Shown here: positions 1 to 232 of the stretch, piece by piece
How positions within the stretch are numbered: position 1 is the stretch's first letter
Layout of the letters: the number at the start of each line of letters is the position of its first letter
Assembly: GCF_003334405.1 (NCBI RefSeq)
Contig: NZ_QOWM01000074.1
Reading direction: 5' to 3' (one strand)
DNA: 232 nucleotides
DNA from: Escherichia coli
Lineage (GTDB): Bacteria; Pseudomonadota; Gammaproteobacteria; Enterobacterales; Enterobacteriaceae
The notes under the pieces: model-generated
Seen by the model: the letters and a program-made list of their open reading frames with translations, nothing else
Database searches by the model: none
Told to the model about the DNA's origin: nothing
Position numbers and translations under genes: made by a program

Positions 1-76
1 GTCCCCTTCGTCTAGAGGCCCAGGACACCGCCCTTTCACGGCGGTAACAGGGGTTCGAATCCCCTAGGGGACGCCA
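1..76 (+). tRNA. gltT/gltU/gltV/gltW family (paralog not resolvable): tRNA-Glu (anticodon UUC), complete gene with encoded 3' CCA; the spacer tRNA of a Glu-type rrn operon
   Basis: Cloverleaf verified by hand. Acceptor stem 1-7 (GTCCCCT) pairs with 66-72 (AGGGGAC). D-stem 10-13 (GTCT) pairs with 23-26 (GGAC), including one G-U pair. Anticodon stem 28-32 (CCGCC) pairs with 40-44 (GGCGG), with a 7-nt loop 33-39 (CTTTCAC) placing the anticodon TTC at 35-37. Variable loop 45-48. T-stem 49-53 (AGGGG) pairs with 61-65 (CCCCT), with T-loop TTCGAAT at 54-60. Discriminator G73, CCA 74-76. The sequence matches the E. coli tRNA-Glu gene as I recall it; no search was run. Confidence 0.96.
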
Positions 77-110
77 CTTGCTGGTTTGTGAGTGAAAGTC
101 GCCGACCTCA

Positions 111-148
111 ATATCTCAAAACAGACTGTTAAGTCTTGTTTGATATAT
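111..148 (+). other. Imperfect AU-rich RNA hairpin immediately upstream of boxA (boxB-like position)
   Basis: Inverted repeat paired by hand. Apical stem 123-127 (AGACT) pairs with 132-136 (AGTCT) around loop GTTA (128-131). Continuing outward: C122-G138 with T137 bulged, A121-T139, A120-T140, A119-T141, C117-G142 with A118 bulged, T116-A143, a C115/T144 mismatch, then 111-114 (ATAT) pairs with 145-148 (ATAT). No folding energy was computed. Confidence 0.55.
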
Positions 149-149
149 T

Positions 150-164
150 TGCTCTTTAAAAATC
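150..164 (+). promoter_or_regulatory. boxA-type antitermination element (spacer boxA; NusB/NusE binding site on the nascent transcript)
   Basis: TGCTCTTTAAAAATC at 150-164 matches the rrn boxA core (GCTCTTTAA-AA) at the expected place in the 16S-23S spacer, directly after a hairpin. Confidence 0.8.
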
Positions 165-186
165 TGGATCAAGCTGAAAATTGAAA

Positions 187-211
187 CACTGAACAATGAA
201 AGTTGTTCGTG
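187..211 (+). other. GAAA (GNRA) tetraloop hairpin in the spacer
   Basis: GAACAA at 191-196 pairs perfectly with TTGTTC at 203-208 (6 bp). The loop is TGAAAG (197-202), where T197/G202 can form a U-G wobble closing a GAAA tetraloop. The stem extends with C189-G209, A188-T210 and C187-G211, leaving T190 bulged. Confidence 0.55.
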
Positions 212-232
212 AGTCTCTCAAATTTTCGCAAC

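Follow-up and report, generated by a model that had tools for sequence, protein, structure and literature searches.

The gltW gene and its spacer in the rrnG operon

The window, by which we mean the whole stretch of 232 nucleotides that was analyzed, is the tRNA-Glu gene gltW of the Escherichia coli K-12 rrnG operon together with the spacer that follows it, a thoroughly known stretch of DNA that is rich in conserved signals for RNA processing and antitermination. The gene occupies positions 1-76 and the spacer positions 77-232 (156 nt), both on the plus strand, the whole lying in a 16S-23S internal transcribed spacer of the Glu type. The window opens with the first base of the tRNA, and a further 28 nt separate its end from the annotated start of the 23S gene. 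Using megablast against complete E. coli genomes, we found that 232 of its 232 nucleotides (100%) are identical to rrnG of K-12 MG1655, and that many other strains match it likewise. The genes flanking the rrnG spacer in K-12 are also the same, and there is no difference between this K-12 stretch and the window. A match was present in 5425 of the 5426 genomes, at a median of 7 places per genome, and 37972 of the 37982 matched places were chromosomal; in other words, this is a multi-copy sequence found once per rrn operon.

In K-12, the genes around the window run in the order clpB, rrsG (16S), gltW, rrlG (23S), rrfG (5S) and kgtP. A scan of the surrounding locus with Rfam models (L001, with the window at 6001-6232) placed the small-subunit rRNA, RF00177, at 4288-5829 and the large-subunit rRNA, RF02541, at 6261-9164, the first upstream and the second downstream of the window on the same strand, with the 5S gene also downstream. 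The initial annotation had predicted both the full-length matches within rrn operons and the 16S and 23S genes on either side, and all of these were found. The results that it had named as speaking against it were top matches outside rrn operons and flanks devoid of 16S and 23S; neither occurred.

That annotation had also expected a tRNA-Glu(UUC) at positions 1-76, and the gene was called there by ARAGORN (tRNA-Glu, anticodon UUC, ttc in the DNA, bases 1-76). RF00005, the Rfam tRNA model, scores 60.1 bits on the window, where the gathering score is 29, and NC_000913.3 carries the same gene in its annotation. The CCA end is encoded, and the anticodon loop, bases 33-39, reads CUUUCAC. All four Glu-type operons of MG1655 share these 76 bases, which are identical in gltW, gltT, gltU and gltV.

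The spacer is where the operons diverge. Compared with rrnB, rrnC and rrnE of MG1655, the window differs in a block at positions 123-136 and in SNPs at positions 101, 104, 105, 109, 144, 197 and 200. A 51-nt probe over the block (positions 100-150) matched 1750 of the 5426 E. coli genomes, with a median of one copy each, and in both of the other, unrelated strains that we examined the block allele sits at the clpB-kgtP locus, which is that of rrnG. The commoner rrnG alleles, represented by two other strains, have C108, G144 and C197, while the window has T at all three positions; by these differences it is the K-12-lineage allele of rrnG. The initial annotation needs refining on this point, since the spacer is a specific allele, that of rrnG in the K-12 lineage, instead of a generic E. 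coli spacer of the Glu type. Two of the substitutions fall in stems described below. T144 leaves a C115.U144 mismatch in the stem of hairpin 110-149, where the G144 alleles restore a Watson-Crick pair, and T197 makes a G.U pair in the side hairpin, where the C197 of other E. coli alleles gives C-G.

Variation continues directly past the end of the window, where the leader of rrnG falls 9 nt short of those of rrnB, rrnC and rrnE (ACUCUGAAGUG versus ACACGAUGAUGAAUCGAAAG; L005 minus strand, -28 to -1 of 23S). A comparable short version of the leader is found in Enterobacter hormaechei (L051) and in locus L110, and such sharing is consistent with a mosaic exchange of spacer blocks. On the far side of the operon, an IS1A insertion interrupts kgtP just downstream of rrnG in E. 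coli 2015C-3121 (L116, 9606-11681).

Two hairpins between the tRNA and boxA

We retrieved 110 loci from a collection holding one genome per species, using the pattern 'tRNA-Glu 3' end, 50-80 nt, boxA'; the loci cover the Enterobacterales and Zobellella. Two hairpins of the plus strand lie between the tRNA and boxA, and both are supported by predicted folds and by covariation across these loci.

The first, at positions 83-107, carries the loop GUGAAAG (92-98). Across the 68 distinct sequences of alignment A3, the loop never varies, and the stem pairs in 78% of cases, compared with 27-45% for slid controls. The covariation score of the stem is 0.545, as against 0.247 for shuffles and at most 0.18 for slid controls, and each of its three inner pairs forms in 98-100% of cases and is represented by 3-6 pair types. 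The hairpin was found in 103 of the 104 Enterobacterales loci. It is specific to spacers of the Glu type and missing from the Ile/Ala-type spacer of rrnA. The Zobellella spacer lacks it as well.

It is possible to read the loop as a GAAA tetraloop of the GNRA class, closed by the pair U93.G98. Read in this way, the hairpin resembles the boxB element of the lambda nut sites, whose GNRA-like loop is bound by the N protein; the likeness lies in U-GAAA-G. The boxB of lambda nutR is CCCU-GAAAA-AGGG, and the counterpart of the hairpin in Ile/Ala-type spacers, CCU-GAAA-AGG, is nearly identical to it. There are also differences, in that lambda boxB has a pentaloop whereas hairpin 83-107 has a tetraloop, and in that the order relative to boxA is reversed. 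E. coli is not known to make an N protein. What role boxB plays in rrn operons has itself been called 'puzzling' (PMC10250234).

The second hairpin, at positions 110-149, is built in two tiers and abuts boxA, the position that boxB holds in the leader. In alignment A2 (80 distinct sequences), 93.5% of cells pair, compared with 25-46% when the partner is slid. Changes on both sides are seen at 13 of the 16 pairs, and none of 500 shuffles reached any of the five observed measures. The window's own copy folds with -10.8 kcal/mol (z = -3.1), the weakest among 94 distinct sequences, as compared with -16.3 kcal/mol (z = -5.6) for the rrnB version. Its tip, positions 123-136 (AGACU-guua-AGUCU), is the cassette of the rrnG allele, and the exchange of the cassette keeps the pairing, with AGACU/AGUCU in rrnG in place of the UCAUC/GGUGA of rrnB. 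An identical tip stem is present in Escherichia sp. ESNIH1 and in Citrobacter braakii.

The loop of the first hairpin has a further property: GUGAAAG and the anticodon loop CUUUCAC are exact reverse complements, with 7 of 7 Watson-Crick pairs. This allows a reading in which, throughout the Enterobacterales, the loop, which lies 16 nt past the end of the tRNA gene, forms a 7-bp kissing interaction with the anticodon loop of the tRNA-Glu just transcribed, intramolecularly and within the pre-rRNA. It might then chaperone, mask or time the processing or modification of the spacer tRNA or, acting in trans, sense tRNA-Glu in the manner of a T-box. We regard such an interaction as improbable, even though several observations speak for it. 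The complementarity is confined to the two loops without extension into either stem, at -6.5 kcal/mol, and the loop is constant in 103 of 104 Enterobacterales loci though the stem covaries. The layout of GUGAAAG resembles that of an anticodon loop (xU-GAA-Ax), and in K-12 rrnA the hairpin that follows tRNA-Ala (L118, around 2376-2382) has a GCAA, within UGCAAAG, that complements the region of the tRNA-Ala anticodon loop.

Against these points, the match was spotted post hoc, and 2.2% of dinucleotide-preserving shuffles of the spacer contain a 7/7 match (a naive estimate gives about 0.4%). Both loops are invariant within the Enterobacterales, which leaves covariation uninformative for this pairing. 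Comparison across tRNAs and taxa shows that the complementarity does not follow the anticodon. Zobellella has an identical tRNA-Glu anticodon loop but no complementary loop in its spacer. Among seven distinct Ile/Ala spacers from a metagenome scan, three have GAAA instead of GCAA; two of them (L122 and L127) keep the tRNA-Ala anticodon loop as it is, while the third (L121) has C at tRNA position 32. E. coli itself carries both forms in its Ile/Ala spacers, with GCAA at 15431 places and GAAA at 504. The kissing loop was rejected as a general principle, and kept only as a reading of low probability, on the grounds of the GAAA spacers (two of them with an unchanged anticodon loop), of the two forms in E. 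coli and of Zobellella, which is without a Glu version. Overall, the evidence against a kissing interaction is stronger than the evidence for it. Because GCAA and GAAA alternate in Ile/Ala spacers, with E. coli holding both, the constraint common to the Glu and Ala hairpins looks like one on a GNRA-capped, lambda-boxB-like fold.

A literature search returned nothing on the GUGAAAG motif or on its complementarity to the anticodon loop. If real, the interaction would couple the folding, modification or release of tRNA-Glu to the folding of the spacer and the assembly of the 23S leader. The complementary loop is a testable curiosity and a by-product of this analysis. A comparable match was seen in the 16S leader, where UUAUCAG (L001, 4159-4165, between boxA and boxC) is the exact complement of CUGAUAA, the anticodon loop of tRNA-Ile(GAU); because a Glu-type operon carries it as well, this match is probably a coincidence.

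boxA, the 23S leader strand and StyR-44

Next to hairpin 110-149 lies the spacer boxA, UGCUCUUUAAAAA, at positions 150-162 of the plus strand, the putative NusB/NusE binding element of a second nut-like site. The 12.2-kb rrnG locus contains exactly two copies of its 10-nt core, TGCTCTTTAA, one belonging to the 16S leader and the other to the spacer, where 0.05 occurrences would be expected by chance. The core was built into our scan pattern, and its invariance across the retrieved loci is by construction. There is little variation at bases 160-162, where A57 never changes, conservation of A56 is at least 90%, and position 55 (160 in the window) is A or C and rarely T.

Two copies of boxA per rrn operon, one upstream of 16S and one upstream of 23S, have been described (PMC4807359; PMC10250234), and a second boxB-boxA-boxC set has been located upstream of 23S (PMC10250234; PMC8632103). 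The spacer has several features in common with the nut-like site (boxB-boxA-boxC) of the 16S leader, of which it is the second copy. In each, the boxA core UGCUCUUUAA is immediately preceded by a hairpin and is followed on its 3' side by conserved sequence that supplies the 5' strand of a leader-trailer helix. The spacer has two conserved upstream hairpins, 110-149 adjoining boxA and the GNRA-capped 83-107 farther 5', whereas the 16S leader has one. The segment that follows the spacer boxA, UCUGGAUCAAGCUGAAAAUU, is unlike the leader boxC, UCUGUGUGGG, in sequence, and it begins directly after boxA, while the leader boxC is found 18-19 nt downstream.

In the 16S leader, boxC follows boxA closely on the downstream side and belongs to the 5' strand of the leader-trailer helix (Warner et al., PMC10250234). 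In the model of Wahl, NusB bound to boxA keeps the leader boxC close to the RNA exit channel for as long as the trailer has not appeared (PMC10250234). By analogy, positions 161-182 of the window would be a functional analogue of the leader boxC. From the same literature we infer that Nus factors bind the spacer boxA and that an antitermination complex may assemble there.

The leader strand itself could be followed in some detail. Positions 161-182 (plus strand) form the distal 5' strand of the 23S leader-trailer helix, which is the processing helix, and pair with positions +34 to +55 after the 3' end of 23S. A second leader-strand segment, at 213-229 (plus strand), is seen in the cofold, where 214-229 pair with trailer positions +21 to +32, and in duplexes computed per operon; within it, GUCUCUCA (213-220) pairs with the trailer sequence GAGAGA(C), and 225-229 pair weakly with +21 to +25. 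Cofolding of the rrnG leader and trailer predicts 58 intermolecular pairs, with the partner about 2.9 kb downstream. For the window alone, the interaction energy is -22.7 kcal/mol, compared with -7.0 +/- 2.6 kcal/mol for shuffled trailers.

We used per-operon duplexes for the comparison among species instead of a concatenated alignment of leader and trailer, which was dropped for its large lineage-specific insertions. Segment 158-184 finds a partner in its own trailer in all 26 of 26 distinct operons (35 operons), at -18.6 to -30.8 kcal/mol, and the position of the partner in the trailer ranges from +26 to +98. In 24 of the 26, the pairing with the own trailer beats all 100 shuffled trailers. 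Compensatory changes are seen at position 169 (U-A in 11 operons, A-U in 15), at position 165 (U-A in 19, C-G in 4) and at position 160 (C-G in 11). Otherwise the 5' strand is near-invariant over both 161-182 and 213-229, and 173-182 is invariant. To test for co-evolution with the own trailer, we also swapped trailers for the variable part, 219-232, which pairs at -6.8 kcal/mol with its own trailer and at -6.0 kcal/mol with others, a modest difference (permutation p ~0.015). Because this swap test is weak, we claim no firm pairing for positions 221-232, whose pairing with the trailer is weakly supported. The 23S helix has been given as 27 bp (PMC10250234); the distal extension found in this analysis may lie within the accepted model of that helix or beyond it.

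In Providencia, Prodigiosinella and related loci (among L039, L040, L056, L057, L066, L067, L103, L114 and L115), the 23S leader is enlarged by some 150 nt, inserted where the distal segment of the helix gives way to the proximal one. In some trailers, an inserted hairpin splits the helix partner. The 23S genes of three loci (L019, L056 and L057) are 3010-3091 nt long, which suggests intervening sequences.

Between the two leader-strand segments, a side hairpin is formed by positions 187-211 (plus strand), which in the window has its short form and corresponds to the inner stem in the StyR-44 model of Rfam. All 57 distinct versions of this hairpin (from 76 loci) fold with z < -2, with a median of -4.7, although their sequences are unrelated and 25-58 nt long. 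In many genera (L011, L014, L036, L063, L078 and others), there is a long form of about 55 nt between GCUGAAAAUUGAAAC and GAGUCUCUC, with a strongly conserved apical loop, CUCCGUAAUAAG; the short form of E. coli K-12 has 25-30 nt. Conservation of the loop in the long form suggests a site of binding or tertiary contact.

The initial annotation had explained the whole window by a tRNA-Glu gene and a spacer. This is true, but it overlooked that positions 154-232 (plus strand) match Rfam StyR-44 (RF01830), known as npcRNA 44 of Salmonella Typhi. The match, which scores 91.8 bits where the gathering score is 54, covers model positions 1-79 of 107. The window is without the last 28 positions of the model; the full copy, at L001 6154-6253, scores 105.3 bits and ends 8 nt before the 23S gene, which starts at 6261. 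The likeness to StyR-44 thus consists of the match to the model and of the site directly upstream of 23S. The RNase III site known from the literature, near -7 of 23S, is outside the window, which ends at -29. The description of the spacer as an ordinary one leading toward 23S holds in that it is an rrn spacer, but it is not a passive stretch: it contains structured, conserved elements and overlaps StyR-44.

The Rfam model and the leader-trailer helix use the same bases. The outer stem of StyR-44, which pairs 173-182 with 221-229, is complete (9 of 9 pairs) only in the group of Escherichia, Enterobacter, Citrobacter and Klebsiella. Elsewhere it falls to 2-8 of 9 pairs without compensation, because positions 173-182 are invariant. 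Instead, these bases pair with the 23S trailer, and compensatory support comes from the flanking part of that helix, at positions 165 and 169. The outer stem competes with the long-range helix and probably does not represent the fold that matters biologically, a second by-product of this analysis. The structure annotation of StyR-44 in Rfam may need revision.

These results bear on whether 154-232 could be a stand-alone regulatory RNA with the Rfam fold and a trans-acting function of its own. The strength of the match (91.8 bits in the window and 105.3 bits for the full copy) favors this, as do the Northern blots on which StyR-44 was detected in both S. Typhi and E. coli, with regulation by growth phase (PMC2943607). 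On the other side, the region is part of the rrn precursor, no promoter-like site was found for it, its 3' end falls at the point where 23S is processed, and its outer stem is unsupported beyond close relatives, the 5' strand of that stem pairing with the 23S trailer. Regulation by growth rate is expected of any by-product of an rrn operon. StyR-44 was described at its discovery as 'part of ribosomal operon' and as processed from longer precursors, and its authors could not exclude that it is a metastable intermediate of maturation (PMC2943607). We consider an independent regulatory RNA very unlikely. StyR-44 is best read as an excised fragment of the 23S leader, and as a piece left by processing because its 3' end lies at -8 of 23S, next to the RNase III site.

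Reading frames, the rrnG transcript and mobile copies

There are four open reading frames of 20-30 aa in the window, a point in favor of a spacer that holds an internal promoter or a small coding gene (for example, the frame at 92-184, 30 aa). The frame at 92-184 is the longest of the four; it meets an in-frame stop in rrnB, rrnC and rrnE, and it crosses hairpins whose sequence is freely replaced across genera. A search of the window for promoter-like sites gave 0 hits, with no sigma-70-like promoter and no site resembling an intrinsic terminator, while the internal promoter that has experimental support is located inside 16S, outside the window. We give this explanation almost no credence.

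Taken as a whole, the window is almost certainly a piece of the primary transcript of K-12 rrnG, consisting of tRNA-Glu and part of the leader of pre-23S rRNA. None of the results speaks against this identity. The identity of the sequence, its operon context, the structures and their covariation are observed here, and they can be arranged in the order in which the RNA would be made and processed. The tRNA-Glu (1-76) would be cut from the precursor, leaving 156 nt as leader of pre-23S rRNA. During transcription, hairpins 83-107 and 110-149 would form first. The boxA at 150-162 would emerge next and bind NusB/NusE, and the rRNA antitermination and chaperone complex could be nucleated or renewed there. 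Positions 161-182 and 213-229 (GUCUCUCA and its neighbors) would then serve as the 5' strand when, about 2.9 kb further on, the complementary trailer past 23S has been made and a long helix closes. RNase III would cut the 23S-proximal part of the helix, outside the window, and release pre-23S; the excised leader piece would be the RNA that was cloned as StyR-44. The scheme agrees with the established picture of how rRNA precursors are handled; that Nus factors bind, that the leader strand is tethered and that RNase III cleaves are points it draws from the literature on rrn operons, by analogy with what is described there.

The locus was already known and is among the best studied in biology, and no new system is hidden in it. 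Every part of the spacer is an element of a known kind, and the initial annotation's denial of a novel system stands. As a scan result, the value of the window is that of a clean negative only; the main by-product is a coordinate-level map, supported by covariation, of the functional RNA elements in a Glu-type spacer.

The same annotation had left no reading frame, repeat array or mobile element unexplained, and this agrees with our results, which gave no conserved frame, no tandem repeats and no mobile copies; the repeats in the window are short and trivial. Matches in the plasmid and phage collections were considered as mobile copies and rejected, being either mis-filed chromosomes or short, unannotated contaminant records. 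Specifically, an enterobacterial rrn spacer is present in the short unannotated 'phage' records OR850364.1, OR844775.1, PV358070.1, PQ800148.1 and OR850889.1. One such record of the phage collection is labeled 'Staphylococcus phage', and a 249-nt contig labeled 'Chryseobacterium mucoviscidosis' (L076) is a similar case. These phage records and the L076 contig are probably contaminated or mislabeled.
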